Below the pieces are notes generated by a model. The model saw only the letters and a list, made by a program, of their open reading frames with translations, searched no databases and was not told where the DNA came from. A DNA stretch of 63,968 nucleotides, the filler included, from Psammoneis japonica (taxonomy: Eukaryota), in NCBI GenBank assembly GCA_008632985.1. It is 4 parts of 4 records of this genome, joined end to end, with 100 filler letters (N's around TTAATTAATTAA, not from the genome) between each part and the next. Parts side by side here need not be neighbours in the genome. Positions count along the whole stretch, not along the records: positions 18,700 to 37,237 come from QPGO01000468.1; positions 37,338 to 55,810 come from QPGO01000467.1; 2 more parts are not named here. One strand, given 5' to 3'. Position 1 is the first letter of the stretch, and the number at the start of each line of letters is the position of its first letter. The position numbers were made by a program, and so were the translations under genes. This document shows, piece by piece, positions 18,700 to 55,914 of this stretch.

Positions 18700-21600
18700 A
18701 TGAAGTTCCAGAACATGAGGGGGCGGAGAAGGTCCCAGACTTGGGAGCAACCCCAATGCTTGCTGAGAATGTCAGCAGGGTTGCGGGAGCCTTCAATGAA
18801 GTGGAACTCAAGGTGACCAGAGGCAATTGCCTCACGCACACGGTGGAACGACAGCACGGTGTGTCGCTTGTGCAACTTGGAGTGCGGGATGGTGGCACTG
18901 TCTACAACCGACTTGTTGTCACCGAACATGTAACTAATGTCACGGATCGGGACGCCGAGGCAGTGCAGGGTGATGCGCAGGTCGATAATCTGCTCGACAC
19001 AAGTCCTCGCGGCAACAAATTCAGACCCGTAGGTCGCAGTCTCCACGGTGGCTTGCTTCTTAGAGAACCAATCAGCCGGGAATTTGTTGAGGAAGTGGAG
19101 CATTCCCATGACAGAGCATCTGGTGAGCATGCAATGGCACAAGTTTGCATCGACGTAGTGGGTGGTAGTGACGAACTTGCCAAGGGGCGGTGGAGCGTCC
19201 TTCGGGATCATCTCTTCTGCTTCGCCGTACACGGAATGCATCCATTCACAGGCCGGAGCAGGGAGATCCGAACAGTTGGGCTCTTCCATGCGAACGCGGA
19301 GAGCACCGTGTCGCATCTTGGAGAGGCACCCACAGACGCGTTTGGCATGATCCAAGTGGCCTTGACGGGGTGCAGCTCGGAAGCTAGAGAGTGACATGAC
19401 GGCCGTGGTGATGTCAATTCGACCAAGGGACACTGCCCATTGGAGTGAACCAACAAGAGACTGGAACTGGTGAATGCCATCGGGCCCCAGCAGTTCGGAA
19501 GTGTCCAGTTCGGGGTGGTCACCCTTCTCCAGAGGTGACAGGGCGTTGGTGGCAGGTTTCTCCCCAAAAAGTCATGTGTGGCTGTCGACCATGCGTTCAA
19601 TGTACTTGTGCGGAGACAGGCACAAGGTGCCGTCAGGATCCCGGGAAAAGTCACAGCCTAGATGGAACTCAATCGGTCCTGCACCCTTGAGCTTGAACTT
19701 GCACTTTTCCGTGAGAGCATCGACGAAAGATTGAGGGTCCTTCATGGCAATGGCGAGGTCATCCACATAAACGGCAATGTGTTCGTAGTGGTCGCCGTTC
19801 CTGCACATCCAAATGTCGGGTTCGGCACGGCAGGGGAAGAAACCTTCAGCTCGTAGGCAGTCGGTGAAGCGCTCGTGCCAGCGGAGGCCGGAGCTGCGCA
19901 GTCCATGCAGGGCCTTGTGGATGACAAGAATGTGGCCTTCGAGTTTGCCAAATTTGGGTCCAGCTACAATGTACAGCTTCTCCTTGGTGGTGGCTTCAAG
20001 GCAGGCATTGCCAATGTCGGTGGCCCATGTCTCCAACTCGTTGAGTTCGGCCAGGAAAATCATCAGCCGAAGGCCACGGAGGGAGACTGCTCCGGAGCAG
20101 ACACTGTCGATGGGTACGTCCGTGAGGTGCCCATCGGCTATGAGTCGTGCCTTGTGGCGACCGTCATGTTTCACGTTGTACACTGGGTGCACTCGGATCT
20201 TCTTGTGTCCCGCAGGAGGAGTGGAAGACTCGGAGGGCCCGCAGTCATGAAAGACTTCGTATTCATCGAGTTGGTCCATCTCGAGATTAGTTGCGTCTCC
20301 CCATTTGCGGTTGCCATTGCGTTCGTCCAGTGACATGGCGTGTTTGTAGTTCCGGGGAACTTTGCATCCATGCTTGTAGCGAGGTGCAGTGCGGAAGGAG
20401 CGAAGCTTGGCTTGGTTGGCCATGCGGAACAGCTTCTTCTGGCACCTCGCGATGGTGTGGAACCACTTCCAGCCATCAGTGTCGAGAAGTCCGTTCTCTC
20501 GTGCATAGATGGCGCAGGTGACAGGGTCGTCCTTGGCGATGATGGCAAGAGGCTTGGACGTGATCTCCCCACTTTCCCATTCAAGCACAATGTTGTAGCT
20601 TGAGCCTTTCCAGGTTGGGTCATGAGGCTTCAGAGGTCCTTCGTGTGACACGATGCGTCGAAATTTCCAAACAGCAGTGTCTTCGTCTTCTTGCTCAATG
20701 TGATTCATGATGTCGTTGTGGGCCAGGACTTCCTCGTATTTGTTGTTGTTGACAGAGCAGATGAACTTAGTGAGCTCGGGGTTGCCGTTCACTTTCCATT
20801 CGTGGTCTTCGACGGCCTTGACGATGCGAGCTCTGTGGCATTGTCCGTCCTCTTGTGGCTGCATGAGGAAGGTGCGTCCGATGATGTCTTGCGGATCGAA
20901 AACTGGCATCTTGGGTGTCCTGATCTCCCCATCAGGAGAATCGACGGGGTTGTCGTCATGGCGAGATTTGATGATGGGTTCAGGTGGCTCCCCATCAGGA
21001 GGATCAAGACGCAGGTTTCGAACAGCAGGATCGGTGGTAGCGGATCGTACGTTGGACCGGCAGAGGATCTTCTGAGTCTTGTCAGAGAGAATCTTGAAGG
21101 TCATCTGGTGACCAACGTGCTCAGCAATGCCAACAAAGCGTCCACGCAACTCACGGGATTCGGACGGCCAATCGGAGTCATCGAGGTGGAAGTGCATGGG
21201 TTCCCACCAGTGAAAGCAAAGCAATGGGCTGATGTCCGGGGTGGAGCCAGTGAGAGTCTCGAGGGGCGTGCGCCACTGGAGACGTGGGGACGCTGCATGG
21301 TTGAGCATGAAGCACACGCACATGAGCGCCAGCAGCCATGTGTGGGCAGGCAAACCGAAACGATCCATGACAGTGTTCGCCATGCACTTCACGGTCTGGT
21401 GTCGACGTTCGGCAAAGTTTTGGTGTTGCTGGTGAGGCTCACTTTGCCAGCTGGAGACAAAGAGGGCTCGTAGGATCCCGAGCACCTTGTTGCTGATCTC
21501 AACTTGAGCACGGTCGCTAATGAGTTTGGATGGAGCACCACACTCACGGATCTGATCCTCGAGTGTGTTGACAAACTCTTTGTCCGTTTTGGTGCCGTAG

Positions 21601-24481
21601 ACATCAGTGACGGTAGACTCAGTGCCAACAAACAGTTGGGCGCTGGTGCAACCAGAGTCGACGGCCGGGGTGTCAGCATGAACTGTGTCAGTGGCGATGG
21701 GCTCGTTGCGGCGGTGCACATTAAGGGCGGGGTTGGGCGATTTGCAGGCCTTCTTAAGGTGTGTACCGGCGGGCATGCGGGCGTACTGCGTGGTGCAGTT
21801 GAAAGTACGACGAACCGCATCGGCAGGTTGGAAGCCAAAGCAAGGCCGAAGAGACTCGAAGGGGGGTCCTTGGGCTGCACAGTGCGCTCCGGGGGCGGAA
21901 CATCGTCGTCCTTGGGGTCAATCGCGTGCAGATGACACTCGTAGAACACGTCGTCGTTCAGAATGAGGTGGTCATCGAGGGCGGATGCGTGATCGGCAGA
22001 CAAGGAGGCGGACATGATGGTCTTGTTGACAACGACACGGTGACGGTAGTTGCCGCATTCGTCAAATAGGTTGGCAGTGGGATTGTCCTGCAGGTCAGAG
22101 ATCGCGTCGTACCACTGGTCGTCATCAGTGATAGAGTGATCGAGGATGGAAGGATCCCATGTGTCATCACCGGCAAGGATGACATGGGGCAGGGTGTCCC
22201 ATTCGGCGTCAGTGTGGGGACGCATGGCAACATAAGGCAGGCCGCCCTTGATGTCAATTGGGATGACACAGCCATCAGGGGTGGTGACACGTTGCAAGCC
22301 ATTGGGCACCTTGACAGAGCGATCGTTGACATCATGTTTGTACCATTCGAGCTGGCCGCAGGAATGAATGGTCTTGCCCTTTCCCGTGTGTGCGCACTGA
22401 TGGAGGATGGCGATGACGGGACCACGCTGTGTCTCAATGACGGCACCAGCGGTGACAATGGGGATGTCCACCAATTGATGGTCGTCAATGCCCTGAACGT
22501 CCACTTGGCGAGAGGTGCGTGCAATGACGCGAACGTCATCACCAGCAATGCCGCCGTTGGCTCCACGATCGACTAGAGCACCAGTGCATGTGGAGCGATG
22601 AGCGGAGGCAGAGTGAATGACATTGTGGTTGTCAACACGGCGGTAAGTGTGGCCGTTAAGTTCTGTGTCATCTGCAGGAGCAGGCGAGGTAGAGGGAGCA
22701 GCGGATGGCCCCGGTCGACTGGCGTTGGGGGCTTGGTTAGGAGACAACAGGCGTTGCAGATCACCGGGTGGCAGTGGCTTGCGCTTGTTGAGGTGCGCCA
22801 GAATGGGATCATCTGAAGTGGCATCCACATTTGGAGCAGGGTCACCAGAGTCAGCAGGAGTTGTGTTGGACCAGTTGACATCACCGTCACTCCCAAGTCG
22901 TTGGTCGTGAAGGTTGACCGCAACGGACTCATGGTAGTTGCTGGCTCGCGGGTGGCAGGGAGGCGGACGAGAATGCTCAAGGATGATCGCCTTGGAGGAA
23001 TGGGGCAACGAATCCCAAATCTGTTGGTGGTCGGGAGGGAGACGTTTCCATTGGTCACCGGTGAGGCTGGGACCGCGGGTGTAGGCAGCGTTAGCCTGAA
23101 GGATGTCAATGTCACTGTCGATGTCATAGAACACATCATCGGATGGTTCCTCGGAGTAGACGTCGTGTGCGCATATGGAGCGTTGGGGAGCTCGAGGTGT
23201 CGTCTTGGGTTGAAACGTGCTGTGGCATTGAGCCGCCGCGGAGAGGAGCAAGCCACAATGTTGATCGTATGTGAGGCTCTTGCCACTCTGCGTGCGATGC
23301 TGATCAGCTTGGTTCTTGACGGCGCGGAGTTCCTCGACAGGATGTACGGCATTCTCGAGCATGACGCGCTTCTGCCCTTCAGAGAAGTGGTCACTGGCCG
23401 GGATGAGTGCCTCGCACTTGCGCAACTGATCTTGCCAATGAAGGATGAACCCGTGGGTCGGACCTTTCCAAGTACCATCACCAAGACGTGCGGTGGTAAG
23501 GTACGTGAGCAAGGTGGAGGGCTCGATGGAAGCGCGGGTGGAGGCGAGCGCATGCTCGGACAAGGCGCGGTAGACGGTCTGGGCGTCAGAAGACCCCACA
23601 TTTTCGCAAATGAGAGCCCTGCCCTTGTCGGTGAGAAGGATGCGTTCGAAGACGGTGAACATGCACTTTTGCTGTTCAGCAAAGAGCAGTTTGTCTTCGG
23701 GGCTGGTCGGTTTGTACGACGAGTCTAGAATGCACTCGACGTCTTGGGCACGGGCTTGTGCCACAAGTGAGGTGTGCCAAGTGTGCCACTGCTTGTTGGA
23801 TTTGAGAGCCGTGAAAGCGGTGGGGTCACGCTTGATGCCTCGCTTGAAGTCTCGCACTGGGTCGCGTGCCTTGGTCGGGTTGGTGACATGCGGAGGTGCG
23901 AGGGGCGAGCTGCCGACGGACACAGAAGACATGCAGTCGGGGCTGAGGCGGCAGGCAAGGAACTCCTCATGCGTGAACAACGAGGAGTCATTGGCAACGT
24001 CGAGACCTTTGTGTGCTTGGACAATGTACAGACTAACTAGAGCTGCTAACATGTTCTTATAACCGCGGGGCAAAGGGATCACATTAGTGCCGTTGTCGTA
24101 CTCAAGCGAGTCGATTTGGGACGGTATGAACGTGAACAGTTCTTGGCACGAGTCGGTGCCGTCATGGGTCAAAGCTAAACGAAGAGGGCTTCCAGCACCT
24201 TGGGCAAGCACGGTTCCCAACAACGTGCTCGAAAACCATCGGTTTGTTGCTGACGAGTGAGAACCATGACAGACAAAAGCGGTGTCAGGACAAGCGATTC
24301 TTGTTGGGACGCGAAGGTAGACTTGAAACTTGGGTGAGAATAGACTTGACTTGAAATGGACTTGACTTGAAATCTTGAACTATCCTAAAAAATCAGAAGT
24401 CGCCGGGGTGTGCTATCCCGTTCGTTGTTGAGTGCTAAACTTCCTATCCGGTCCGTAGAGTTGTGCCGGCACGTCCGAACC

Positions 24482-24878
24482 GACGCGTTCCAGACGCAGG
24501 TGGGAATCCGTGTGACATTGGGCCCATGGAATTCTACGTGCGAGCTCCGTAGTAAAATTATACGGTAATTGGAATGTCAATGTTCGCCAACAGAAAATGA
24601 GGCAATTTTGCGAACGCACAAACTCGCACATGATTGAAGTACATCGATTTTTACTTAGCCAGTTACATTCTTCAGACATTGAAGAATGTAACTGGCGCAT
24701 TGTTGTTTCTATAAATGCGTCATGTAAAACGTCTGGGGCTTCGCAAAACAGCAAGTCTGGACAATTTTTTTTTAAATATCACACGTAGAAATGTACGTGC
24801 GAAACATACGACGGATGATAAAAATTATTTGTGTCACACGTCGGTACTACGAGCTCCCACCTAGGGCTGGAACGCTTC
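24482..24878. mobile_element. MITE (397 bp) inserted in the 5' UTR of copia A copy 1
   Basis: Absent at the same site in copies 2 and 3 (empty site CCGAACCCGCAG). 4-bp TSD AACC. Imperfect ~24-bp TIRs GACGCGTTCCAGACGCAGGTGGGA / GAAGCGTTCCAGCCCTAGGTGGGA. Confidence 0.9.
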
Positions 24879-25606
24879 AACCCGCAGCCAGTGGCGCTTT
24901 GGGTTGCTTACGAGCGGAGTAGCGGGTTGTAAACCCCTGCAGGTAAGCTGACTAGAGGTGGACAAGACCCCCGAACCGTTCTTATTTTATGTCGGTTGGA
25001 TTTCCCGATCAGGCTGACCAGTTGACGTAGGCGTTAGGCGCTGTGGACGAACGAACAAACGCGGGAAAACACCCTCGCCCCAACGTAGGCTGTAATCACG
25101 GCTACTTGCTCTCACAGTCATCCTCGTGGACCTAGTAGAACTGTAGAGCACCAGTAGTCCGGGGTAGATCAGGTACAATAGACTCGGCGTGCTTGTAGAG
25201 TGGTAGCAAAGCCGCAGTCCAAAGAGTGGGTTCAAGTCCTTGGCCGTGAAGATATGTACACACATATGTCTCCAGCGACGAAGATCCTTGAATATGTAGG
25301 GTTCTTGACCGTTAACCGTTGAATGGGTATATCAAGGGATGAGGATCAAGGATAGACTTGGATATGACCGTTGAATGTATGTCTTCAGCGATAAAAGGTA
25401 GTATAATCAATCCAGATATCCAGCGGTAAGGAGACTTGACGGTGACGTTAACTTCCTGCCGATGCCTGGTATTGAATGCGCGTAGACTTGCCGATGTACG
25501 TAGAATATATACGGAGGTCCACGCAGAATTGAAATAGCGTCGTCGGTAAATCAACGACGACGATGGCGGTTGCTCAATGGGTTGACAATGAGCAAGACTG
25601 TTAATC

Positions 25607-25882
25607 TGACAGAAATTGAAGGCAAATGGCAAGAATTCAAACAATAACTCCTTACTGCTGTCTAAATAGCAGATGAGTCTCCGCTCAGAGACCGTCACAG
25701 GAGCGGAAAGACGTGTGAGTTGGTATAATCGGGCTGCTGTTGTTATTCTTGTGAGCCTTGTGGCTCGAAAGCAAACTACATCACGCGCGAACGCACGGAA
25801 CTAAAGCACACAAAACTGTGTGCGGTAAACTAAACAGCGCGCGACATGTCGCGCGCACCTAAATCCTGTTCAAATCCTGTCA
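25607..25882 (-). repeat. Copia A LTR (copy 1, 5')
   Basis: TGACAG...CTGTCA termini, ~276 bp, homologous to four other LTRs in the window. Confidence 0.95.
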
Positions 25883-27769
25883 GCAATGTTGTAAAAGGGG
25901 ACACGGCAATGGGGGCATTTGGGTTTGTCAGTGTTGGACCCAAGGGAGACAACGGAGGCAGAATCCAGAGGATGAGAGGAAAGAGATGTCCCACTGGGCC
26001 GGATGGGGAAGATGATTGGGTGTTGCGGTGCAAAATGTCAATGGGGAAGGGAGAACAGATGCAGCAGTGCAGTGCCGAGACAGGCAATGCTGAACATTGG
26101 TTTTGGAGTCAAAACCACATTGTCCGCAATGAGGACAACTAAAAGACTTGGTCAGAATGGCAGAATGGAGGCAGTCAGTTGTGATGTGCCTGCTGAGACC
26201 ATGTTCGGAAAAGAAACCAGTTCGTTTGCACCAAGGACAAACAAGACCATCAGACAATGTGGCCGATGCACAGAGACAAAGGAGTGTTAAAAAGAGAATC
26301 AAACAGAACAGCATGTGCAGCAACAATCACTTGGGGATTCAGTGAGTGTAGAAATGCAGGACGAGAAAAAAGGTGCGATGGGGGAAGGCACATGGAGAGA
26401 AGGATGGAATGGGCAGAGAGAGAAAATTTAGAAGGCAAGCAGAATCTACCTTGACAAATGTGTGAGGCGATTTTGACGCAGAAAATTGATTGACACACAA
26501 TCCAGAAATTAACATGCAATTAAACAAACACACAAGGCTTGTCCAAAGGGGGGCAAACAGTCAAATTGGGGAATGGAGATGTTTGTTGTTGAATGTTTGA
26601 CAATTACAAACTTGACAAATCAGCATGATCTTGGATTAAATGGAGAACATGTCGGGATTTGTTTCAAGAAATCTTTGACGGCTGGTGCAACACCTGGATC
26701 ATTGGTGTCCCAGATGTTGGTTGTGCTGTGCCAGTAAAATTTTTTGTGGGTGCTTTCTGGCTGGATGATGTGGAGGCAGCCTTCTTGCATCTAATTTGCA
26801 GCTGGTGGCAACATGTGAGAACAGCTGCACAATGTGGGTTTTGCAGGTTTGAAAAGCTGGTGGCTCACTTGAGTGTGCTGTGTTGGTCAGATTTCCTTTT
26901 GGCTGCTTGTTGCATGATGTGGAGGCAGCTTTCATGCATCTCTTGGGTGTGACTTTCTTTGCTTTGTGCAGAGTGTCACCCATTTTGTTGTTGTGTGACA
27001 AGCATCCTCACAGCTCTTGCTGGGATCTGAAAAGGCATCACCATGTGAGTGGTCTCAGGCACAACTTCTCTAGCCTGCAAAGCCCAAGAGGGCAAGTTTT
27101 TCACCGTCACAAAAACACCTTTCTGTGGCCATCCCTGGGTTTTGACATGTGTCATCATTAGAGTTTTGCACTTGGAGAGGAACAGACCACATTTTGGGCA
27201 ACAATGTGGCTCTTGTGTGACATCATTTGTTTGATCACAAAATGACATGTGCCCCCAAGGTTTTTTTAGAAAGTCCTTTGTGCTGTGCTGTTTTTGTGTC
27301 TCATTTTCACATTGATCTCATTGACATGCTCAAGGTGGGAGTTTGGCTCCATTGCACAAATGAAACATGGCACAGACAAAAAGGGTGGGGCAGTGGGAAG
27401 CTGCTGCCAGCCAGGCTCTGCAACCTCTTCCTGAGAACTGGTGCACAACACCAGCAGCTTCGTGCACATCTCTCTGAGGCTGAGGCCCTGCAGCTGACAC
27501 ATGCACCCTTTCAACTCTGTGGTGCTGCACCTGGTTCAGGGCTTCTTTCCACTGAAATTGGGGTGGCAAGGTTTGGAGTTGGGGTTGGTTGGGAATCTTT
27601 GAAAAGCGGGGGGCTTGGCTCCAAACAGAGTTGGGGGCAAGCCACTCAGGTTCACATTTTTCTCAGAGAGAGCTTTGCCAACAAGCTCCTGCAGGGTCTG
27701 GACCAACACATCCAAACCAGGGCCACTTCCAATGGAGTCATTGCCAGGAGTGGGGAACAAGCTGTCTCA

Positions 27770-28560
27770 CACCAAAGTGAATGAGCCATGAGCTGAGGGG
27801 CTGGTTTTCACACAACTGTGTGATTTTTGTGAAGGAGGCACTGCTGAACAGTTCATGCTTGAGGACTTGTGTTTTCTCTTGGTTTTTGACAAAATCATGT
27901 TCGGGTTTGTGCACCTGGCAGTGCCCTGCCAAGTTTCAACCTGACTTCAAGAAAGGCATTTTCCTTGGCTTCCTCCCCAATGCCAGCAACAATGTCACAT
28001 GGTGCAATCTCCAGGGACATCTCAGGTCAAGATGGCTGGGATGTTGTTTTTGACAAGGAGGTGAATGACTTGAGACATTGTGAGATCCTTCCAAATGATG
28101 TTGCTCAGCTCCAGCACACCCAGAGCAGTGAGCCATTCCCATCTGGTTCCTGTCTGGAGCTGCTGAAACTTCTGCCAATCATTTTCATTTTGCTGGTGAC
28201 CCCTTTGCCAAGACCACAACCCAACATTTGGACTGGCTTTCAAGACCAGTGAGCTTTTTGGTTGTGCACGTGTTTTGGGTTGTTGCAGGGTGCAATCTCC
28301 AGGGAAATCTCAAGTCAAGATGGCTCTGGGATGCTCTTTTTGACAAGGAGGTGAACAACTTTGGACATTGTGAGATCTTTCCAAATGTTGCTCAGCTCTG
28401 GCACACCCAGAGCAGTGAGCCATTCCCAGCTGGAGCTGCTGAAACTCCTGCCAATCATTTCTGTTTTGCTGGTGACCCCTGTGCCAAGACCAAAACCCAA
28501 CATTTGGACTGGCTTTCAAGACCAGTGAGCTTCTTGGATGTGCACATGTTTTGGACATCA
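27770..28560 (+). pseudogene. Copia integrase C-terminal fragment with an internal ~290-bp tandem duplication
   Basis: CPAKFQPDFKKGIFLGFLPNASNNVTWC...VVFDKEVNDL resembles the end of the 50437-51951 integrase. The unit starting TGCAATCTCCAGGGA recurs at ~28003 and ~28291. Confidence 0.65.
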
Positions 28561-29587
28561 AGCACAACAGCTCTCTGCTTTGCAACTGCTTTCTTCTCTG
28601 AAAGCTGCTCAGAACAAGATCATCATGGCTTCTCACATTGCTTCCATGATTGATGGTGTTGATGTTTTTGCATGTGAGCTGGTCCTCTCTGAGCTTCAAT
28701 GACTCAATGACACTGACAACCCTGAGTTTGAGATCATGCTTCTACCCAAGCACTGCCAAAACTCTTGAGAGCTTCAGTGTGCTTTTGTGGAACACAATTT
28801 TTTGTGCGCTGTTGGAAAATGAGGAAGAACATGTGCCTGAGGTCACAATGGAGGGTGAAAGAGCTGCCACTGCTGTTGGACTTCTGGAGTCATCACAATG
28901 GCTCTCAACAATGCAGCAATGACACCACATGTCAACCAACATGGATCATGATGCAACAGCAGGGGCACACACTTTCAGATTTCCCACATGACTCATCAAT
29001 TGTTGTGTTGCTGCCAGTGTGGTGTGGCTTGCTCATGCACAAAAAATGAACCCTTTAGAGTGTGGCCACACCTGAAAGAGTTGCTAAAAATGACTTTGGC
29101 TCAAGCTTGATGAGCACTTTGTTGGTGCCATCTGGCTTGAAGCTGCTGATGAGAACAATCTCTAGAACAGAGAACTTTGCCAGAAAAAAAACAACTTGTG
29201 CAGTTGGCAGTGACTGAAGAACAAAAGTTGGAGGAAGGCACACCTGCATTGCATCTGCTTTCAAAGCCAGAAGATGTGATTTTTGTGGTCTGTGCAGTTG
29301 TCAGTGGTCAAATGTCCAAAATCCAAATCAATCTTGGCTCTGATGAGAATGCAGAAAAAGCCCCTGACAGAAATTGAAGGCAAATGGCAAGAATTCAAAC
29401 AATGACTCCTTGCTGCTGTCTAAACAGCAGATGAGTCTCCGCTCAGAGACCGTTGCAGGAGCCGAAAGACGTGCAAGTCAGTGCAATCGGGCTGCTGTTG
29501 TTATTCTTGTGAGCCTTGTGGCTCGAAAGCAAACTGCATCGCACGCGAACACGCGAAACTAAAGAACACAAAACTGTGCGCGGTGAG

Positions 29588-37237: not shown

Positions 37238-37337
37238 NNNNNNNNNNNNNNNNNNNNNNNNNNNNNNNNNNNNNNNNNNNNTTAATTAATTAANNNNNNN
37301 NNNNNNNNNNNNNNNNNNNNNNNNNNNNNNNNNNNNN
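37238..37337. other. Artificial contig spacer
   Basis: Same 100-bp N/TTAATTAATTAA/N linker. Confidence 0.98.
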
Positions 37338-38230: not shown

Positions 38231-38368
38231 ATGCCCTAAAGCTGCTTCACAGAATTGGCTTTTTGAGCATGCTTCCTCTGCGCTAAGATTGACAACAAGT
38301 GACTGATGCCTGCCAAGATGATGGCTGCTCGCATTGGAATGAGATCCACTGCTTGACCCCAAGCCGAA

Positions 38369-40889
38369 GTGCCAGCACCAGTGGCAGCTCCAGCGCCAGC
38401 CACGTCTGACCCACCAGAACCTCCTGAACTTCCTGCACCTCCCACAGCCACAGGCAGTGGTGAAGGTGGTGGCGGAGGTGGTGACGGAGGTGGTGGCAGT
38501 GGCGGAGATGGTGGTGGAGCAGGTGGCAATGGCAGAGCCAGAGGAGGAGCTCCTGGAGGAGGTCCACCTGCACCACCAGTGCCAGGACCCTTCAGTCTCA
38601 CTCCAGGAGGATCAAATCAAGGAGCTGCAATTGATTGCTCAACCAAGGCTGAACACTGCCATTTTAAAGGGGCAACCACAAAACTTGAAGAAGAACTTTA
38701 TGATTGCAGGCCTGACAGCTTTTGTCAGTTCATGAAGAGCCTTGAGGAAAGGGCTCAGTCCTGCGGATGGGTCAGTCCAGGTGGCATCTGCTGCATTGCA
38801 CCGGATGCAAACCCTGGAACTGCTGCGGTGAACATTCTTGAAGAACTTGGACGGATCATGCTCAAGAGGTTGATCGAACACAAATTGACCTGCACCAACA
38901 CTCAGACAAGGGCAGCTCAAGACAAAAGGATGTTGCATGAGTGCATCATGAGCTCTCTGTTGATTGATGGAAAAGCAAAGCTCAATGTCCACAAGAACAG
39001 TTGCAAGATCGGCGCCCCAGGAAATCCCATCCTTCTGTCGGGAATTTGTCTTTTCAAGATTCTTGTGCACAAATCCCACCTTGATTCCAATGCTGCTTTG
39101 ACTTGCATTCACACTGAGTTGTTGGACTTGGATGCTCACATTCAAACTGTCAGAAATGACATCATCAAATTCAACAACCACGTGCAAGTGCTGCTCGACA
39201 CCTTGAATTTGAGGGGAGAGATGACATTGGATCTCCCAATGAATTCATTCAAAGGGTGCGCGGCATGCGGCAACAAAGTGTTTGTCAGGTGCATCGCAGA
39301 CCATCAAGATGAGCACAAAGATGGCAGGAGGATTTGGGATCCAGCACAGCTGATGATTCAAGTGGCCTGCAAGCACAAGATGATGAAAGACAAAGAAATT
39401 TGGGAAGCCCCTTCTCCACAGGAGGAAAAGCCACTCGCTCTGGAGGCCCATTTTGCCAAATTGAAGAAGAAGTTTGCTGACAAAAAGGAAAGCAAAGCAT
39501 TCAGAAAACCAAGATTTGGGAGGGAGCCTAAAGAAGAAAAGGAAAACCAGTGAAAAGAAGGACGGCAAGAAGAAGAAGCTTGGAAAGCCTGCCTGGATGT
39601 TCATCAAACCAGTGGCTGATGAGTTGACCAAACCAAGGGAGTGGAATGGCATGTCTTGGCATTGGTGCAGACCTGAGACTGGAGGAAAATGTGAAGGCAT
39701 CTGTCCCACTCACAAACCATCCAAGTGCAAGGGTGCCATGCCACCCAGCAAGAAGGCTTCAGGAGGACAGAAAGAGGACCACTCCAAGAAGGTGACTGTC
39801 AGTGAAGTGGTCAAAGAGATTGATGGTGGTCACTGCTCCGAATGACAGGCATGGGCATGGTTGGGAAATGCACATTCAGTGTCTGTTGACTGGCTTCACA
39901 AATGTGACAATTGTTTGGCAAATCAGTTGTGCATTTGCCTGATTGCATTCCCTTGCTTTGTCCTGCTGATGCATTGTGAAAACAAGCCTGAGAAGACCTC
40001 AAAGTGTGTCCCAAAGAGTTCATGCTGGAACAGGACTGACAAGATCCTGGCAACCATTGTCATCATTTTGCTTGGATTTCTGAACCCATTTCAGGAGTGG
40101 CCATTTAGTCATGAAACTACCTGGAAAGAGAACAAGCTTTGAGCAAAGAACAAGAAGTGACTCTTGGAAGCCCATCAAATGGCACATGACATGTGCAAAT
40201 GTCAAGGTGACCAAGCTGATCACAACACCCTCTCTGCATTCAATGCAGTGGCTCAAACTGCCATGAATTCAGAGGGAGAGCCAATCCATGTCAATGCAGC
40301 AAAGTTTGACACAGACATGGAAGTTGTGGGTGTTGACAACCAATGCAGCACTTGCATCTCACATGACATCAACAATTTTGATGGAAAAGTGACCAAAGTC
40401 AACCAAGCAATCAAGGGATTTGGAGGCCATCGAGTGATGAATGTTTGCAGAGGAATTGTCATCTGGAAATGGTGCAACAATGATGGAACCATGCACAAAT
40501 TCAGGATCCCGAACTTGCACTGCATCCCAGAATGCAGTGTCTGCCTCCACAGCCCTCAACATTGGGCTAAAACCCAAGTCAGAGGAAAAGTGAAGCTCTT
40601 GCAAGGCTTTGGAGAAACAACTTGTGCTGAAAAATGTGTCTCATTTTGGAACAATGGAAGTCATTCCCTGGATGTCCATCTGGGAGAAACCGACAATGTC
40701 GCGACTTTCTGTTCATCTCTGGGATTTAATGAATTTAATGTCTTCTGTCAGAAATGTGACATCAATTATGATGGGACTCAGGAGGAACCAATCACGGTCA
40801 CACAGTTCACCATGACAAGTGATGATGAGGCTGATGATGATGATGTTGCAACGCCACCCCGACATCCACTTGTCAGCCTGTCTGTCGTA
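38369..40889 (+). mobile_element. Copia family B fragment: Gly/Pro-rich gag and protease, truncated by the next element
   Basis: gag with RAAQD..ML.ECI..SL, LSG.CLFKIL and a terminal W.WC...KC...H....C knuckle (frameshift ~39510). Protease-like FDTD...VGVDNQCSTCIS...IKGFGG at 40164-40889. Confidence 0.7.
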
Positions 40890-43800
40890 TGATGGACAGA
40901 CTGTGTGCCGATGATGACCAGACCATTTGGACAGATGAGCAGATCTCTCTGAGATCTGCCTCTCACTTTCTCATCTGCCAGCACTCATGCCATCACAGTC
41001 CTGGTGCTTGGGGAGTCTTTCACACCTCTGTCATCATTGACCTTCAGCACTCTGTCAGGTTGTGGCCTCATGCTGTGCCACAGACTCTGCACCAAGCTTT
41101 CTGTCTCAATTCATTTGTTTTGTGAGCCGACCAAGCAAGCCTCGTTGTCTGTTCCAACAACATTTTTTTCTTGCTTTCCCAGCATTTTTCACGATCATAA
41201 AAACACACCAGATTTCTGCGTGTGCATGACCAAAAATGCCCTCACCAAGTGAAACCATGGCATCTCCCGACCTTGCAAAGGCCACTCCAATGTCCATTGC
41301 AGAGATCTGTCATGAATTTCAAGAACATGCAACAACACCTCATTTCCACACAACTTTGAACAAGATGCACGCGGATTCAATGTTTGATCTGGACCCGTTC
41401 TTTGATGATCCAGAACATGCTCAACCGAAGAAAGATTTTGTTGACCTGTTTTGAGATCACCTCATCAACATGGTGTTCCCACTTTGCACGGTTCATCCCA
41501 TGGACATGCAGCCTGTCAAGACAATTGTGGATCAAGCTGCATTCCACATTGTAGACTCTGCCAGGCCTCGTGCGATCCGCATGACGTCCGCATCTCTCTC
41601 GTCGATCATCAAGACCAATCTCTGGAACCACGACCAAATCATGCACGTTGTCATCTCTGCACACAACATTTACTTTGACCCCAACATGACATGGAAATGC
41701 AAGGATTGGAAGGAGTTCTCTCTCATGCCCCACCCACAGAACCCACAGCCTACACCCTCATCTACGACTGGTTCAGGACCTGCAACTGTCGGTGTGAACG
41801 ACTTAATCACCGCCCTCAACAAGTTTGCGTCGAGCAATGCTCCGCCTTCCACTGCCTCTGGCAAGCCCTCTGGAACTCCTGCAACTTCCATGGCATCCAG
41901 TGGTCTCTTCAATCCTAACACCCTGCCTCCCGATGTTCGCACATGCTGCGACTGCAAAGAACATGGTGCCGTCACCCTGAAGAGCTCCCTCGTCCATTGT
42001 GACCATGGATTCCGCCGCCACATTGATGGGTCTGACCGCATCATTCTCAATGATGGCACCCCATTTATCATGAGCTCGACCCCCGACCAGAAGATGCCAT
42101 TCAGAGAACCTCCAAACTGCCATGATGATTCTCCTGCTGGGGTGTGTGCATGGTGCCAAAATTTCCAACGTCACTCATTTGACTCGGGACACTATGTGCA
42201 TCCTTCTCGGTGCTTCACCAAGGATCACGGTGGTGAGAAGGGTTTTGAGATTGGCAACGGCTGACAGAAATTGAAGGCAAATGGCAAGAATTCAAACAAT
42301 GACTCCTTGCTGCTGTCTAAATGGCAGATGATTCTCCACTCAGAGACCGTCACAGGAGCCAAAAGACGTGCAAGTCGGCACAATCGGGCTGCTGTTGTTA
42401 TTCTTGTGAGCCGTGTGGCTCGAAAGCAAACTGCATCGCGCGCACGCGCAGAACTAAAGAGCACACAAAACTGTGCGCGGTGAACTAAATAGCGCGCAAC
42501 ATTTCGCGCGCACCCAAATCCCATTCAAATCCTGTCACTCCCCAGTTTGCTTGAGGAGTCACAGAAACAGATTCGACTTCGGATGGAATGAAGTTCCAAA
42601 ACATGAGGGGACGGAGAAGGTCCCAGATTTGGGAGTAACCCCAATGCTTGCCAAGAATGTCAGCAGGGTTGCGGGAGCCTTCGATGAAGTGGAACTCAAG
42701 GCAACCAGAGGCAATTGCCTCACGCAAACGATGGAACAACAGAGGGGTGTGTTGCTTGTGTAACTTGGAGTGCGGGATGGTGGCACTGTCCACAACCGAC
42801 TTGTTGTCACCGAACATGCAACTAATGTCACGGATCGGGACGCCGAGGTAACGCAGGGCAATGCGCAGGTCGATGATCTGCTCGACACAAGTCCTTGCGG
42901 CAACAAATTCAGACCCGCAGGTCGCAGTCTCCACTGTGGCTTGCTTCTTAGAGAACCAATCAGCCGGGAATTTGTTGAGGAAGTGGAGCATTCCCATGAC
43001 AGAGCGTCCGGTGAGCATGCAATGATGCAAGTTTGCATCGACGTAGTGGGTGGCAGTGACAAACTTGCCAAGGGGCGGTGGAGCGTCCTTCGGGATCATC
43101 TCCTCTGCTTCGCCACACACGGAATGCATCCATTCATGGGCCGGTGCAGGGAGATCCGAACAGTTGGGTTCTTCCATGTGAACGAGGAGAGCGCCATGTC
43201 GCATCTTGGAGAGGTGCCCACAGACGTGTTTGGCACGATCCAAGTGACCTTGACGGGGCGCAGCTCGGAAGCCAGAGAGTGACATGACGGCCGTGGCAAT
43301 GTCAATTCGACCAAGAGACACTGCCCATTGGAGGGAACCGACAAGAGACTGGAGCTGTTGAATGCCATTGGGCTCCAGCAGTTCGGAAGTGTCCAGTTCA
43401 GGGTGGTCACCCTTTTCCAGAGGGGACAGGACGTTGGTGGTGGGTTTCTCCCCAAACAGTCGTGTGCAGCTGTCAACCATGCATTCGATGTACTTGCGTG
43501 GAGACAGACACAAGGTGCCGTCAGGATCCCGGGAGAAGTCGCAGCCTAGATGGAACTCAATCGGTCCTGTGCCCTTGAGCTTGAACTTGCACTTTTCCGT
43601 GAGAGTGTCGACGAAAGATTGAGGATCCTTCATGGCAATGGCAAGGTCATCCACACAAATGGCAACACATTCGTAGTGGTCGCCGTTCCTGCGCATCCAA
43701 ATGTCGGGTTCGGCGTGGCAGGGGAAGAAACCTTCAGCTCGCAGGCAGTCGGCGAAGCGCTCGTGCCAGCGGAGGCCGGAGTTGCGCAGTCCATACAGGG

Positions 43801-46800
43801 CCTCGTAGATGACGAGAATGTGGCCTTCGAGTTTGCCAAATTCGGGTCCAGCTACAATGTGCAGCTTCTCCTTGGTGGTGGCTTCAAGGTGGGCATTGCC
43901 AATGTCGGTGGCCCATGTCTCCAACTCGTTGAGTTCAGCCAGGAAAATCATCAGCCGAAGGCCACAAAGGGAGACCACTCCAGAGCAGACACTGTCGATG
44001 GGTGCATCCGTGAGGTGTCCATCGGCTACAACTCGTGCCTTGTGGCGGCCGTCGTGTTTCACGTCGCACACTGGGTGCACTCGGATCTTCTTGTGTCCCG
44101 CAGGAGGAGTGGAAGACTCGGAGGGCCCGCAGTCATGAAAGACTTCGCATTCATTGAGTTGGTCCATCTCAAGATTGGTTGCGTCTCCCCATTTGCGGTT
44201 GCCGTTGTGTTTGTCTGGGGACATGGCATGTTTGCAGTTCCAGGGAACTTCGCATCTGCACTTGCAGTGAGGTGCAGTGCAGAAGGAGCGAAGCTTGGCT
44301 TGGTTGGCCATGCGGAATGGCTACTTCTGGTGCCTTGCAATGGCGCGGAACTGCTTCCAGCCATCAGTGTCGAGAAGTCCATTCTCTCATGCATAGATGG
44401 TGCAGGTGACAGGGTCATCCTTGGCGATGATGGCAAGAGGCTCGGACGTGATCTCCCCACTTTCTCATTCAAGCATGATGTTGTAGCTTGAGCCTTTCCA
44501 GGTTGGGACATGAGGCTTCAGAGGTCCTTCGTGTGACACAATTCGTCGAAATTTCCAAACAGCAGTGTCTTCGTCTTCTTGCTCAATGTGATTCATGATG
44601 TCGTTGCAGGCCAGGACTTCCTCGCATTCGTCGTTGTTGACAGAGCAGATGAACTTGGTGAGCTCGGGGCTGCCATTCACTTTCCAGTCGTGATCTTCGA
44701 TGGCCTTGACGATGCAAGCTCTGTGGCGTTGTCCATCCTCTTGTGGCTGCATGAGGAAGGTGCGTCCAATGATGTCTTGTGGATCAAAAACTGGCATCTT
44801 GGGTGTCCTGATCTCCCCATCAGGTGAATCGACGGGGTTGTCGTCATGGCAAGATTTGATGATGGGTTCAGGTGGCTCCCCATCAGGAGGATCAAGATGC
44901 AGGTTTCGAACGGAAGGATCGGTGGCAGTGGATCGTACATTAGACCAGTGGAGGATCTTCTTAGTGTCATCAGAAAGAATCATAAAGGTCATCTGGTGGC
45001 CGACGTGTTCAGCAATGCCAACAAAGCGTCCACGCAACTCACGGGATTCGGACGGCCAATCGGAGTCATCGAGGTGGAAGCACACGGGTTCCCACCAGTG
45101 AATGTGAAGCAACGAGCTGATGTCCGGGGTGGAGCCAGTGAGAGTCTCGAGGGGCGTGTGCCAGTGGAGACGTGGGGATGCTGTGTGGTTGAGCATGAAG
45201 CAAACGCACATGAGCACCAGCAGCCATGTGTGGGCAGGCAAACCGAAACAGTCCATGATGGTGTTCGCCATGCGCTTCACGGTCTGGCATCGGCGTTCGG
45301 CAAAGTTTTGGTGTTGCTGGTGAGGCTTGCTTTGCCAGCTGGAGATGAAGAGGGCTCGTAGGATCCCGAGCACCGTGTTGCTGATCTCAACTTGAGCACG
45401 GTCGCTGATGAGTTTGGATGGGGCACCACGCTCACGGATCTGATCCTCGAGTGTGTTGACAAACTCTTTGTCAGTTTTGGTGCCACAGACGTCAGTGACG
45501 GTAGACTCTGTGCCAACAAACAGTTGGGCGCTGGTGCAACCAGAGTCGACGGCCGGGGTGTCCGCACAAATGGTGTCAGTGGCGACAGGCTTGTTGTGGC
45601 AGTGCACATTAAGGGCGGGGTTGGGCGATTTGCAGGCCTTCTTAAGGTGCGTGCCGGCAGGCATGCGGGCGCATTGCGTGGTGCAGTCGAAAGTGCGACG
45701 AACCGTGTCGGTGGGTTGGAAACCAAAGCAGGGCCAAAGAGACTCGCAGGGGGGGTCCTTGGGCTGCACATTGTGCTCCGGAGGCGGAACGTTGTCGTCC
45801 TTGGGATCAATCGCGTGTAGATGACACTCGTAGAACACGTCGTCATTCGGAATGAGGTGGTCATCGAGGGCAGATGCGTGATCGGCAGACAAGGAGGTGG
45901 ACATGATGGCCTTGTTGACAATGACACGGTGACGGCAGTTGCCGCACTTGTCAAATGGGTTGGCAGTGGGATCGTCCTGCAGGTCAGAGATCGCGTCGCA
46001 CCACTGGTCGTCGTCAGTGATGGAGTGATCAAGGACGGAAGGGTCCCATGTGTCATCACCGGCAAGGATGACATGTGGCAGGGTGTCCCATTTGTCGTCA
46101 GTGCAGGGCCGCATGGCAACATGAGGCAGGCCACCCTTGATGTCAATTGGGATGACATGGCCATCAGGGGTGGTGATGCGCTGCAAGCCATTGGGCGACA
46201 AGTTGACGTCACCATCACTCCCAAGTCGTTGGTTGTGAAGGTTGACCGCAATGGACTCATGCCAGTTGCCGGCTCGTGGGTTGCGGGGAGGCGGACGAGA
46301 ATGCTCAAGGATGATCGCCTTGGAGGAATTGGGCAACGAATCCCAAATCCGTTGGTGGTCGGGAGGGAGATGTTTCCATTGGTCGCCGGTGAGGCTGGGA
46401 CCGCGGGTGCAGGCAGCGTTGGCCTGAAGGATGTCAATGTCGCTGTCGATGTCATAGAACACATCATCAGATGGTTCCTCGGAGCAGACGTCGTGTGCGT
46501 GTGTGGCACAGCGGGGAGCTCAAGGTGCCGTCTTGGGTTGAAACGTGCTGTCGTGTTGAGCCGCCGTGGAGAGGAGCAAGCCACAATGTTGATCGCATGT
46601 GAGGCTCTTGCCACTCTGCGTGCTATGTTGATCAGCTTGGTTCTTGACGGCGCGGAGTTCCTGGACAGGATGTGCGGCATTCTCGAGCATGACGCGCTTC
46701 TGTCCTTCAGAGAAGTGGTCACTGGCTGGGATGAGTGCCTCGCACTTGCGCAACTGATCCTGCCAATGAAGAATGAACCCGTGGGTTGGACCTTTCCAAG

Positions 46801-49800
46801 CACCATCACCAAGGCGTGCAGTGGTGAGGTACGTGAGCAAGGTGGAGGACTCGAAAGATGCGCGGGTGGAGGCAAGTGCATGCTCGGACAAGGCGCGGCA
46901 GATGGTCTGGGCATCAGAAGACCCCACATTCTCGCGAATGAGAGCTTTGCCCTTGTCGGTGAGAAGGATGCATTCGAAGATGGCAAACATGTGCTTTTGC
47001 TGTTCAGCAAAGAGCAGTTTGTCTTCGGGGCTGGTCGGTTTGTACGACGAGTCTAGAATGCACTCGATGTCTTGGGCACGGGCTTGTGCCACAAGTGAGG
47101 TGTGCCAAGTGTGCCACTGCTTGATGGATTTGAGAGCCGTGAAAGCAGTGGGGTCACACTTGATGCCTCGCTTGAAGTCTCGCACTGGGTCGTGTGCCTT
47201 GGTCGGGTTGGTGACGTGCGGAGGTGCAAGAGGTGAGCTGCTGACGGACACAGAAGACATGTGGTCAGGACTGAGGCGGCAGGCAAGGAACTCATCATGC
47301 GTGAACAACGAGGAGTCATTGGCAACATCAAGGCCCTTGTGTGCTTTGACAATGTACAGACTAACTGGAGCTGCTAACATGTTCTTATAACCTCGGGGCA
47401 ATGGGGTCACATTAGCGCCGTTGTCGCACTCAAGAAAGTCGATTTGGGAAGGTGTGAACGTGAACAGTTCTTGGTGCGAGTCCGTGCCGTCATGGGTCAA
47501 AGCCAAACGAAGAGGGCTTCCAGCACCTTGGGCAAGCACGGTTCCAACAACGTGCTCAAAACCATCGGTTTGTTGCTGACGAGTAAGAACCATGGTAGAC
47601 AAAAGCGGTGTCAGGGCAAGCGATTCTTGTTAGGACGTGGAGGTAGACTTGAAACTTGAGTGGGAATGGGCCTGACTTGAAATAGACTTGACTTGAAATC
47701 TTGAACTATCTTAAAATCAGAAGTCGCCAGGGTGTGCTGTCCCATTCGTTGTCAAGTGCTAAACTTCCCATCCGGTCCGTAGAGTTGTGCCGGCACGTCC
47801 GAACCCGCAGCCAGCGGCGCTTTGGGTTGCTTGTGAGCGGAGCAGCGAGTTGCAAACCCCTGCAGGCAAGCTGACTGGAGGTGGACAAGACCCCCGAACC
47901 GTTCTCATTTTATGTCGGTTGGATTTCCCGATCAGGCTGGCCAGTTGACGTAGGCGTCAGGTGCTGTGGACGAACAAACAAACGCGGGAAAACACCCTCG
48001 CCCCAACGTAGGCTGTAATCACGGCTGCTTGCTCTCACAGTCGTCCTCGTGGACCTGGTGGAACTGCAGAGCACCAGCAGTCCGGGGTGGATCAGGTGCA
48101 ACAGACTCGGTGTGCTTGTAGAGTGGCAGCAAAGCCGCAGTCCAAAGAGTGGGTTCAAGTTCTTGGCCGTGAAGATGTGTGTGTGCATGTCTTCAGCAAC
48201 AAAGATCTTTGAACATGTGGGGTTCTTGACCGTTAACCATTGAATGGGCATGTCAAGGGATGAGGATCAAGGATGGACTTGGACACAACCGTTGAATGCA
48301 TGTCTTCAGCGACAAAAGGTGGTGTGATCAATCCAGATGTCCAGCGGCAAGGAGACTTGACGGTGACGTTAAATTCCTGCCGATGCCTGGCATTGAATGC
48401 GCGCAGACTTGCCGATGTACACGCAGAACATGTGCGGAGGTCCACGCAGAATTGAAGTGGCGTCGTCGGTAAATCAACGACGACGATGGCGGTTGCTCAA
48501 TGGGTTGACAATGAGCAAGACTGTTAATCTGACAGAAATTGAAGGCAAATGGCAAGAATTCAAACAATGACTCCTTGCTGCTGTCTAAACAGCAGATGAG
48601 TCTCCGCTCAGAGACCATCACAGGAGCCGAAAGATGTGCAAGTCAGCATAATCGGGCCACTGTTGTTGTTCTTGTGAGCCGTGTGGCTCGAAAGCAAACT
48701 ACATCGCGCGCATGCACACGGAACTAAAGAGCACACAAAACTGTGCGCGGCAAACTAAATAGTGCGCGACATTTCACGCGCACCTAAATCCCATTCAAAT
48801 CCTGTCAACAGCAAAGGCGATGACTCACCCCAACGAATGTATGTTCATTGTAAAGAAGCACAAAGTTCCCTTCACAAGATCCTTTCCAAGTCTGACATGT
48901 TCCCCAAGAACAGCAAGCATCATCGGATTTTTGCCTCATGCTGTGGCAATGGCTGCAAGGCTCTCAAGCAAATTGTCTGCGAGAACCATCCGGCTTTTGA
49001 TCATGAGGCTGCTGGATTGGTAGATTCCTGCCCTGTTCAAGGAAATCTGTCATTGACGGACTGTCACTTGCATTTCAAGGATTTTCTACAGCTGCGTGCT
49101 CATGTCTTTGATGCGGGCTCTACGTTGGATGACTCATGAGAGATGACTGTTTTCATCAAGAACACCAAATGCTCCAAGTTCTTGTCCCGTGCCACTGGGG
49201 ACAAAAGGAAGTCTCCTGCTGTGCTCAAGAAGCACATGGATGGACAGATTGTTGAGACTCCATCTGACTTCCTTTGTCAGTTGGACAGTCCATCTGCACA
49301 TCTCTTACAACTCGCATGACTCCTCGCAATCCACACCGTGCATGGGATCGAAACCCAGTGGATGTGCGTCGCACAACTGCCGATGTCAATTCCTTGACTG
49401 TTCCGGATGTCCCTCCCATTGCAGAGGATGCAGACGAGTCACCTGAAGCTGCTGGCACTGACAACTCCCCCGAGGATGCCTTTGACTCCCTCTGTGATGA
49501 ATTGAACGACCTTGACGTACCTTCTGCAGATGAAGACCGTCTCCTTCATCATGTCCACTCGGCTTCGGCATACAAACTCAAGGTTGCTCCCACAGAGGCC
49601 TCCAAGAAACCATGCCTTGTTTGTTCTGACGAACACTTGTTCCATGAGTGTCCTGTCTTGAACAACAACCCGCACATCAAAGGCTTCCACACACGTTTTT
49701 GTCAATTCTTGAAGGGAGAAGCGGCCATGTGTGCCTCTGAATTTCAAGGACCACAAGGTTTGTTGCTGCCTCATCAAGGACAATCTGATTCTCCGTCCAG

Positions 49801-55910: not shown

Positions 55911-55914
55911 CATT

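Follow-up and report, generated by a model that had tools for sequence, protein, structure and literature searches.

Mutation-accumulation lines of Bigelowiella natans are the closest described case of the pattern reported here, since hypermutation of TpA to TpG or CpA has been found there in integrated viruses (Mettrop et al., bioRxiv 10.64898/2026.01.13.699255). According to this preprint, 231 of 302 new single-nucleotide mutations fell within a single-copy giant-virus insert of 186 kb and a virophage insert of 25 kb. A>G or T>C accounted for 230 of the 231, in every case at TpA. Only some lines were affected, at about 1000 times the baseline rate. The preprint also reports 124 clusters of at least three depleted 1-kb windows in 95 Mb, with one 4.4-kb scaffold singled out, and TpA-poor predicted genes enriched in reverse-transcriptase and DDE domains. 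Its authors propose an ADAT2-like DNA adenosine deaminase as the putative enzyme. Here we analysed a stretch of 63,968 nucleotides, linkers included, from the Psammoneis japonica assembly GCA_008632985.1 (hereafter, the window), which carries three copies of a copia retrotransposon family (c1, c2 and c3), a gypsy element and a number of older relics. We consider it likely that a DNA mutator specific for TpA, converting A:T to G:C, has acted on the integrated transposable elements of this window and has spared the adjoining host DNA.

The window and B. natans, as the preprint describes it, have in common A>G and T>C changes at TpA on both strands, located in foreign DNA beside normal host DNA, as well as the long-term trace of low TpA combined with high CpA plus TpG. 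They differ in the kind of record, since the process was caught live in the mutation-accumulation lines, whereas the window holds a fossil record in long terminal repeat (LTR) retrotransposons and relics. The footprint in the window is far stronger, with an observed/expected ratio (O/E) of TpA down to 0 as against 0.45 reported for the B. natans viral insert. Moreover, the four contigs of the window are depleted almost throughout and contain a very abundant family, whereas the depleted clusters reported for B. natans are sparse. In the window, TpA loss also co-occurs with CpG decay, a combination that is not treated in the Results and Discussion of the preprint. The host of the window is probably a different organism from B. 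natans.

Other known systems resemble the pattern in part. Repeat-induced point mutation (RIP) of ascomycetes likewise consists of dinucleotide-specific transitions on both strands and leaves an inactivated, skewed repeat fraction, but it runs in the opposite direction: C>T at CpA raises TpA and makes stops, whereas in the window TpA is destroyed, GC goes up and stops are erased. Decay by deamination of 5-methylcytosine (5mC) shares both the domains and the end products, TpG and CpA, but it is a separate process on CpG that leaves TpA untouched. APOBEC3 and ADAR are comparable as host-driven editors that riddle retroelements with one transition class. APOBEC, however, produces G>A or C>T in a TC/CC context with a strand bias, while ADAR targets RNA, also accepts A before the target and leaves a strand bias after reverse transcription; both patterns are absent from the window.

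The window is composed of at least four contigs (1-18599, 18700-37237, 37338-55810 and 55911 to the end), which seem to be ordered by length, and neighbours across the linkers are not genuinely adjacent. The interval covered by a preliminary description of this locus spans the linker at 37238-37337, with c1 and c2 on one contig and c3 on the next. The copia copies and the linkers are arranged as follows.

18700-25882, minus strand: copia copy c1, with its 3' end cut by the contig start; 5' LTR at 25606-25882.
29364-36474, minus strand: copia copy c2, complete; LTRs at 29364-29640 and 36198-36474.
42261-48807, minus strand: copia copy c3, on the following contig; LTRs at 42261-42537 and 48529-48807.
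18600-18699, 37238-37337 and 55811-55910: contig linkers, each 44 N + TTAATTAATTAA + 44 N, a six-frame-stop linker.

The copia LTRs are 277 bp long with TG..CA ends, and a purine run adjoins the 3' LTR. As in Ty1/copia elements, the reverse transcriptase (RT) matches RVT_2 (E 7e-26); the integrase gave no Pfam match, and DDE-like motifs are nonetheless legible in its translation. Indels among the three copies are few: c1 holds 397 bp in its 5' region (24482-24878) that are absent from c2 and c3, and c3 has a 561-bp internal coding deletion corresponding to 22308-22868 of c1 and 33300-33860 of c2. The polyprotein frame of c2 (35374-29591) contains two stops in 1928 codons, and its composition is 1.35% Tyr, 3.3% Cys and 5.1% His.

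The three copies differ almost only at CpG and TpA. The preliminary description had illustrated the pattern with two short strings from the 5' region, which were located at 25386 in c1 and 48307 in c3. Every one of the six differences between them is indeed TA in c1 and TG or CA in c3, and c2 agrees with c1 at five of the six. The three-way alignment provided 1538 pyrimidine-purine (YR) dinucleotide columns. Invariant columns comprised 477 TG, 356 CA, 242 CG and only 36 TA, while TA was present in two copies in 65 columns and in one copy in 69. TA, CA and TG occurred together in 29 columns, and in 54 others CA stood against TG, with TA gone. For counts by context, both neighbours had to be invariant across copies, and the counts were folded over both strands. 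T>C changes are concentrated at TpA: of 125 TpA sites, 4 in c1, 8 in c2 and 45 in c3 had become CpA, compared with 16, 15 and 40 of 2118 sites for T>C in all non-TpA contexts (Fisher p = 0.02, 2e-5 and 4e-37 for the TpA excess). Rates of T>C in the non-TpA contexts ranged from 0.2 to 2.1%. In the same order of copies, TpC>CpC occurred at 2, 5 and 13 of 725 sites, TpG>CpG at 12, 9 and 17 of 828, and TpT>CpT, equivalent to AA>AG, at 2, 1 and 10 of 565, the background level. The commonest change was CpG>TpG (34, 41 and 83 of 610 sites). Transversions were seen at 30, 14 and 34 of 4966 sites, and c1 had 22 apparent CpA>TpA singletons among 815 sites. In all three copies, A>G/T>C changes were more frequent at TpA than in the other contexts. 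They are also strand-symmetric, as had been claimed, with A>G and T>C nearly equal on the plus strand of every copia copy (38/35 in c1, 28/34 in c2 and 75/73 in c3).

Among the copia copies, c1 is the least and c3 the most mutated. At 170 informative sites, i.e., those with TA in at least one copy, TA was retained at 138 in c1, 109 in c2 and 60 in c3, and at 480 CpG sites defined in the same manner CG was retained at 403, 386 and 349. Expressed as minus-log survival, TpA decay amounted to about 1.2, 2 and 3.3 times CpG decay in c1, c2 and c3, a biased estimate in which sites lost in all copies are invisible. The loss was patchy (runs tests, z = -2.5 in c1 and in c3). In the bin formed by the 5' untranslated region (UTR) and LTR, 44, 34 and 9 of 47 TA sites were left in c1, c2 and c3; the 5' UTR/LTR of c1 (24001-26000) has a TpA O/E of 0.72-0.86, and each of the three copies is poor in TA over its coding part.

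The direction of change was determined with copia homologues as an outgroup. The search returned 196 hits at 40-53% identity (full length about 1850-1900 amino acids, aa); among the 120 listed, 86 were near full length, and the first 70 of these were aligned against the c2 polyprotein. At the 41 columns with at least 80% Tyr, c1 has 15 Tyr, 10 Cys and 10 His, c2 has 16, 12 and 6, and c3 has 9, 20 and 5. Columns conserved to the same degree for other residues were mostly intact. The 26 His columns were all kept in c1 and c2, and 23 were kept in c3, the other three being gaps; the four Cys columns were kept in every copy; Gln was kept at 20, 20 and 17 (plus three gaps) of 21 columns; and Trp at 23, 23 and 22 (plus one stop) of 25. 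Conserved Arg was replaced by Cys, His, Trp or Gln, and this replacement is the CpG-decay component. Where the copies differ nonsynonymously between TA and CA/TG codons, the TA state encodes the residue that predominates among the homologues in 24 of 25 cases (17 further cases are synonymous and 8 uninformative), and the CG state was the majority in 55 of 57 (74 synonymous, 25 uninformative). At sites with TA only in c1, TA was ancestral in 7 of 7 testable cases, so the apparent RIP-direction singletons of c1 reflect TA that c2 and c3 lost in parallel. Each of the 29 three-state columns needs two changes starting from TA and four starting from CG. When a TA kept by c1 had been lost in both c2 and c3, the outcomes in these two were opposite at 17 sites and the same at 26. 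The outgroup columns, the differences among copies and the three-state sites are independent tests, and all three agree on TA to TG/CA, the direction given in the preliminary description; judged by the outgroup proteins, TA and not CA/TG is ancestral. The accompanying claim that conserved Tyr motifs had changed in three families stands for two of them, copia (YVDD in c1 and c2, CVDD in c3) and gypsy (CLDD for YLDD), and was not confirmed for Harbinger. A domain scan of the 106 open reading frames (ORFs) of at least 110 aa outside the three copia copies detected no DDE_Tnp_4 or other Harbinger domain, and the 'ADDGH' string at 6427 lies inside an unsupported frame shorter than the 110-aa scan threshold.

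The same signature was present in a second, unrelated family, represented by one element on the last contig.

59760-62093, minus strand: gypsy pol ORF (RT, RNase H and integrase).

The gypsy outgroup search gave 333 hits, of which 120 were listed, and the first 60 of at least 950 aa were aligned. At the 17 columns with at least 80% Tyr, the element now carries Cys in nine, His in six, Phe in one and Tyr in one, so that 15 of 17 have become Cys or His. Other conserved residues were kept, namely His at 7 of 7, Trp at 13 of 14, Gln at 13 of 14 and Arg at 25 of 27 columns. The ORF is composed of 0.26% Tyr, 4.2% Cys and 4.6% His, with a TpA O/E of 0.28 and a CpG O/E of 0.88. Given that nearly all Tyr is lost while CpG stands at 0.88, TpA loss can near completion with little CpG decay. 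In this copy, the TpA process is separable from CpG methylation decay.

Along the window, TpA loss follows the transposon and relic domains. The parts compared with the elements described above were the following.

25883-29363: unclassified relic between c1 and c2.
37338-42260: relic DNA separating c2 from c3; a weak trace of an aspartyl protease is seen at 37686-38174.
10501-15500: relic domain.
501-3500: relic domain, which includes a 425-bp tandem duplication.
50344-51948, plus strand: second copia-type relic, with gag-pre-integrase and SH3 domains.
7385-9985, plus strand: intact host gene of 867 codons, encoding an FG-GAP repeat membrane protein.
16001-17000: normal spacer, on the same contig as depleted relics.

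The TpA and CpG O/E values were 0.45 and 0.93 in c1, 0.33 and 0.86 in c2, and 0.20 and 0.79 in c3. In the old relics, TpA O/E reached values as low as 0-0.1. The relic between c1 and c2 has a TpA O/E of 0.08 and a CpG O/E of 0.11, with CA at 1.82 and TG at 1.69; the relic between c2 and c3 has 0.08 and 0.26, and the three 2-kb windows spanning it range over about 0.05-0.21 for TpA and 0.2-0.4 for CpG. The CA and TG O/E of these two relics lie at 1.6-1.8. The domain at 10501-15500 contains 0-5 TpA per 500 bp (O/E 0-0.14) with a CpG O/E of 0.03-0.32, the domain at 501-3500 contains 0-3 TpA per 500 bp, and some 500-bp windows have none at all. All transposon-like ORFs are poor in Tyr (0-2.5%) and contain 2.3-5.7% Cys and 2.6-7.3% His. 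For instance, the second copia relic has 0.4% Tyr, 5.2% Cys, 7.3% His and a TpA O/E of 0.09. The borders of the 10501-15500 domain are sharp, both at about 10.5 kb on the side of the host gene and at 15.5-16 kb on the side of the normal spacer. The host FG-GAP gene has a TpA O/E of 0.47 and a CpG O/E of 1.02 over its whole length (TpA 0.36-0.75 in 500-bp windows), and its protein contains 2.3% Tyr, 0.1% Cys and 1.5% His. Composition and internal repeats were used for this gene, whose homologues match in 2-22 repeated stretches and are unsuited to a column-wise Tyr test; the aromatic residue of the repeat motif, read off the printed protein, is Tyr in five of seven repeats. The spacer has a TpA O/E of 0.69-1.09 and a CpG O/E of 1.07-1.18. 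The process is confined to transposon and relic domains, which are sharply bordered against an intact host gene. Across the window, 56 of 63 1-kb windows have a TpA O/E of at most 0.43, the 5% cut-off of the B. natans preprint, and 30 of 63 also have CA+TG of at least 1.52 and pass both of its 5% cut-offs. Over these 63 windows, TpA O/E correlated with CA+TG O/E at a Spearman coefficient of -0.77 and with CpG O/E at 0.75. A link to CpG methylation, which the preliminary description had envisaged, is thus seen at the scale of domains. It is not seen at the scale of base pairs, where neither the distance to the nearest CpG nor the CpG density within 50 columns differed between kept and lost TpA (p 0.25-0.68), nor in the gypsy element with its contrast of lost Tyr and kept Arg.

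Regarding the 425-bp tandem duplication (1028-1452 and 1453-1877), which is situated in a nearly TpA-free domain, its two halves are 98.8% identical and differ at only two places, one a CA<>TG swap and one at CpG. The near identity of the halves indicates that the duplication is younger than the surrounding decay.

As to mechanism, the mutator would convert A:T to G:C at the palindromic TpA, giving TpG or CpA according to the strand affected, and it would remove TpA from these elements at least as fast as methyl-CpG decay removes CpG. Such a mutator would never create stops and would erase TAA and TAG, so dead frames would stay open while conserved Tyr turned into Cys or His. In kind, it would match the hypermutation at TpA that the preprint describes for integrated viral DNA in B. 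natans. Our tentative first choice for the chemistry is adenine deamination in 5'-TA-3' by an ADAT2/TadA-like polynucleotide deaminase that works on DNA, the resulting inosine being read as G, and we rank it first because of the precedent argued in that preprint. For the choice of domains, guidance by heterochromatin or small RNAs appears preferable to homology sensing.

The base preceding the T bears on the chemistry. Changed copy-sites made up 8 of 36 (22%) after A, 30 of 147 (20%) after G, 15 of 120 (12.5%) after C and 4 of 72 (5.6%, the lowest) after T. Likewise, among the TpA that survive in the transposon part, depletion is strongest for ATAT, ATAC, ATAG and ATAA and weakest for CTAC, CTAA and TTAA; viewed on the opposite strand, TAT and TAC changed more than TAG and TAA. 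Thymine could be the target instead of adenine, through TET/JBP-type or other oxidation or modification of the T in TpA to a product of the 5-hydroxymethyluracil/5-formyluracil (5hmU/5fU) type that pairs with G. Oxidised thymines mispair with G, TpA is self-complementary so that a hit on T equals in sequence a hit on the A of the opposite strand, and the preference for A or G before T is as compatible with this chemistry as with deamination. The T of TTA is nonetheless the least affected, and the authors of the preprint favour a deaminase (bioRxiv 10.64898/2026.01.13.699255). We regard a thymine target as unlikely and rank it second. After adenine deamination and thymine modification, what remains of our expectation goes to a chemistry not yet considered.

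The two LTRs of one element are made from the same template and are identical upon integration. In c2, the pair now shows 18 differences, consisting of four TA<>CA/TG, four CA<>TG swaps, seven at CpG, two other transitions and one transversion. The pair of c3 also shows 18, with four TA<>CA/TG, three CA<>TG swaps, ten at CpG, no other transition and one transversion. CA<>TG swaps also separate other repeat pairs of the window, such as 57540-57957 and 58890-59271, with 22 of them in 363 aligned bases. The LTR pairs of single elements differ at TpA, and the process accordingly acted on DNA after integration, as the preliminary description had maintained. These data bear on A-to-I hyper-editing at the RNA level (ADAR-like or fungal TAD-like) that became fixed via reverse transcription. 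In favour of it, the carriers belong to the retrotransposons, and RNA editing enzymes typically act where a U precedes the edited A (bioRxiv 10.64898/2026.01.13.699255). Yet A>G equals T>C on the coding strand, the unclassified relics are the most depleted parts, AA>AG is not raised, and the B. natans targets reported in the same preprint are DNA virus inserts. Together, the LTR-pair differences and the strand symmetry rule out that the changes stem mainly from an edited RNA genome, and we consider this explanation very improbable.

Of similarly low probability is an artefact, whether through misreading of a modified base at TpA or through mis-assembly of a highly abundant repeat family. The sequencing data consisted of three runs from one sample, which is probably the source of the assembly itself, and they are not independent of it. 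When contigs of run X1 were placed on c2, 12753 pieces were obtained, and their depths added up to 5e4 to 1e5, from which it follows that the copia family is very abundant. This abundance speaks for an artefact, as do the contigs of about 18.5 kb joined by linkers, the single sample behind all runs, and the letters private to c2 that lack a supporting contig at many places. On the other hand, the same TA/TG/CA variation occurs among the run X1 contigs (135-244 nt, at depths of 35-166, apparently short-read unitigs), indels between copies are few, and misreading would neither alter conserved Tyr differently in each copy nor spare a host gene on the same contig. At places where at least one quarter of the run X1 depth differs from c2, the changes were A>G at 101, T>C at 93, G>A at 53 and C>T at 36, with at most 9 places for any other class. 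Site-level family readings were taken at 40 of the 347 variable places. For example, at 31102/3 and 34251/2 all three window copies have TG, and the family is about evenly TG and CA; at several sites where c2 has kept TA, 54-100% of the family shows CA or TG. The family-wide contigs support real variation of the same TA/TG/CA kind. In addition, the Tyr losses shared among copies, the near-normal TpA of the c1 5' UTR/LTR next to a TA-poor coding part and the CA/TG of the family at TA sites of c1 and c2 suggest that coding-dead copia copies multiplied further with help in trans.

Ordinary decay of methylated repeats, in which 5mC deamination is combined with the usual under-representation of TpA, has even less to recommend it as an account of the whole pattern. 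CpG>TpG is the commonest change, conserved Arg went to Cys, His, Trp or Gln, and TpA and CpG O/E co-vary (0.75), all of which agree with such decay. It is, however, unable to remove TpA; of the 25 polarised differences, 24 run from TA to CA/TG, and the gypsy element lost 15 of 17 Tyr against 25 of 27 Arg kept. A baseline for this element lineage was obtained from metagenomes, where 234 related copia loci were found, the best 80 were taken and 72 of these were distinct. TpA O/E in the 72 loci ranged from 0.27 to 0.96, with about half at 0.6-0.8, and many combined a CpG O/E of 0.03-0.3 with a TpA of 0.5-0.7. Relatives low in CpG thus retain TpA, which means that CpG-methylation decay alone spares it in this lineage; relatives with a CpG O/E of 0.03-0.25 hold TpA at 0.5-0.7, and some 500-bp windows here have no TpA. 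None of the 72 loci reached the depletion level of the window, and the lowest, L032 (TpA 0.27), has a mild Tyr deficit. Decay by 5mC deamination is therefore refuted as a full explanation and is valid for the CpG component only.

Five of the metagenome loci (L059, L045, L023, L019 and L020) have a CpG O/E of 0.03-0.23 with a normal TpA O/E of 0.49-0.67, a state of methylation decay without the TpA process.

We give just as little credit to Pol eta-like WA>WG repair synthesis or to GC-biased gene conversion among repeats. Either would yield A:T>G:C, but AA>AG, equivalent to TpT>CpT, remained at background in all copies (2, 1 and 10 of 565 sites), and T>C at TpC and TpG was also at background, hence there is no general AT>GC drive. 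The Pol eta-like WA>WG candidate of the preliminary description is consequently a misfit.

The least credible of all is fungal-type RIP or non-CpG cytosine deamination (CpA>TpA), which would make the copies rich in TA the mutated members of the family. The unpolarised differences between c1 and c3 look exactly RIP-like, as do the 22 apparent CpA>TpA changes among 815 sites in c1. RIP, however, predicts His to Tyr and Gln or Trp to stop, and it is excluded because c1 and c2 preserve all 26 conserved His as well as 20 of the 21 Gln and 23 of the 25 Trp without stop gain, the TpA O/E of 0.05-0.45 is not raised, and the TA sites unique to c1 are ancestral (7 of 7). An account of the majority rule by parallel RIP was rejected on the numbers of YR columns and on outgroup polarity. 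The exclusion of RIP and of 5mC deamination, already argued before, is upheld, for RIP by the outgroup direction and for 5mC decay by the dinucleotide, which is not the one on which such decay acts.

Several observations weigh against a TpA-specific mutator acting on integrated elements. Under strict polarisation, the share of TpA sites changed in c1 and c2 amounts to a modest 3-6%, and the bulk of the signal comes from c3 and from changes common to c1, c2 and c3. Many sites with TA in c2 show about 100% CA/TG in the summed family depth; with the family in CA/TG where c2 keeps TA, mutated copies must have kept multiplying, and the pattern is partly inherited. Letters private to c2 are unconfirmed by the run X1 contigs, which drop rare variants. 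The unaffected controls consist of one host gene and one 1-kb spacer only. Finally, we know of no deaminase with the preference for TAT and TAC over TAG and TAA.

One more feature of the last contig deserves mention.

55912-57036, plus strand: ORF with a protein-kinase domain (Pkinase, E 1.4e-9).

This ORF contains 1.6% Tyr, 5.1% Cys and 5.1% His, with a TpA O/E of 0.37, and might represent either a pseudogene or captured gene located in a targeted domain. Concerning coding potential more generally, 89 stop-to-stop frames in the window reach 150 aa or more, and many of them overlap on both strands, such as 21389-24379 with 22573-23724 and 31649-35374 with 32380-34716, all four on the minus strand. 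With TAA and TAG erased, dead elements remain open in more than one frame.

Beyond the window, the signature was detected in one of 135 proteins, comprising the 120 listed copia homologues and 15 cluster members. This protein (P0118; 959 aa, 45% identity) belongs to a different copia family and is encoded on a 10675-bp contig of another public assembly. It contains 0.73% Tyr and 3.0% Cys, and its 16 aligned conserved Tyr columns include nine changed to Cys and two to His. Its replacements are those of c2 at only three of six shared positions, which indicates that the changes in P0118 are independent. In full-text literature searches, the B. natans preprint was the only relevant report found; its supplements may list further affected families. 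The preliminary description had presented the system as undescribed, whereas the same signature is already reported in that preprint (bioRxiv 10.64898/2026.01.13.699255). The earlier interpretation holds in substance. Its novelty is gone, however, and its restriction to repeats is too specific; the main target described in the preprint is a single-copy viral insert. What the window may add is a case from a non-chlorarachniophyte lineage, probably a diatom or another marine stramenopile, in which the same TpA editing would affect retrotransposons at a rate at least that of methyl-CpG decay and independently of CpG loss; we hold this to be quite possible, while not yet calling it probable. For the FG-GAP host protein, the nearest cluster in a protein atlas is eukaryotic, and Bacillariophyta is its commonest phylum, at a score of 0.82 that falls short of the reliable range and serves as a lead only.

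For annotation, the finding carries a warning, as gene finders will call the dead frames on both strands as Cys/His-rich, Tyr-poor proteins. A screen applicable to any assembly would combine a TpA O/E below 0.3, CA+TG above 1.5 and the change of conserved Tyr to Cys or His. The quantitative picture suggested by the copia copies is one of TpA decay at 1.2-3.3 times that of methylated CpG, with TAT and TAC preferred, after integration and in patchy domains. Targeted genomic A:T>G:C editing has so far been known from one preprint and one organism, and with a second, much more heavily marked instance in retrotransposons it could no longer be seen as specific to viral inserts or to one alga. If this holds true, the abundant, half-mutated copia family would be a ready substrate for enzyme discovery, and targeted TpA editing would be a widespread, possibly ancient eukaryotic genome defence and not the oddity of a single alga.

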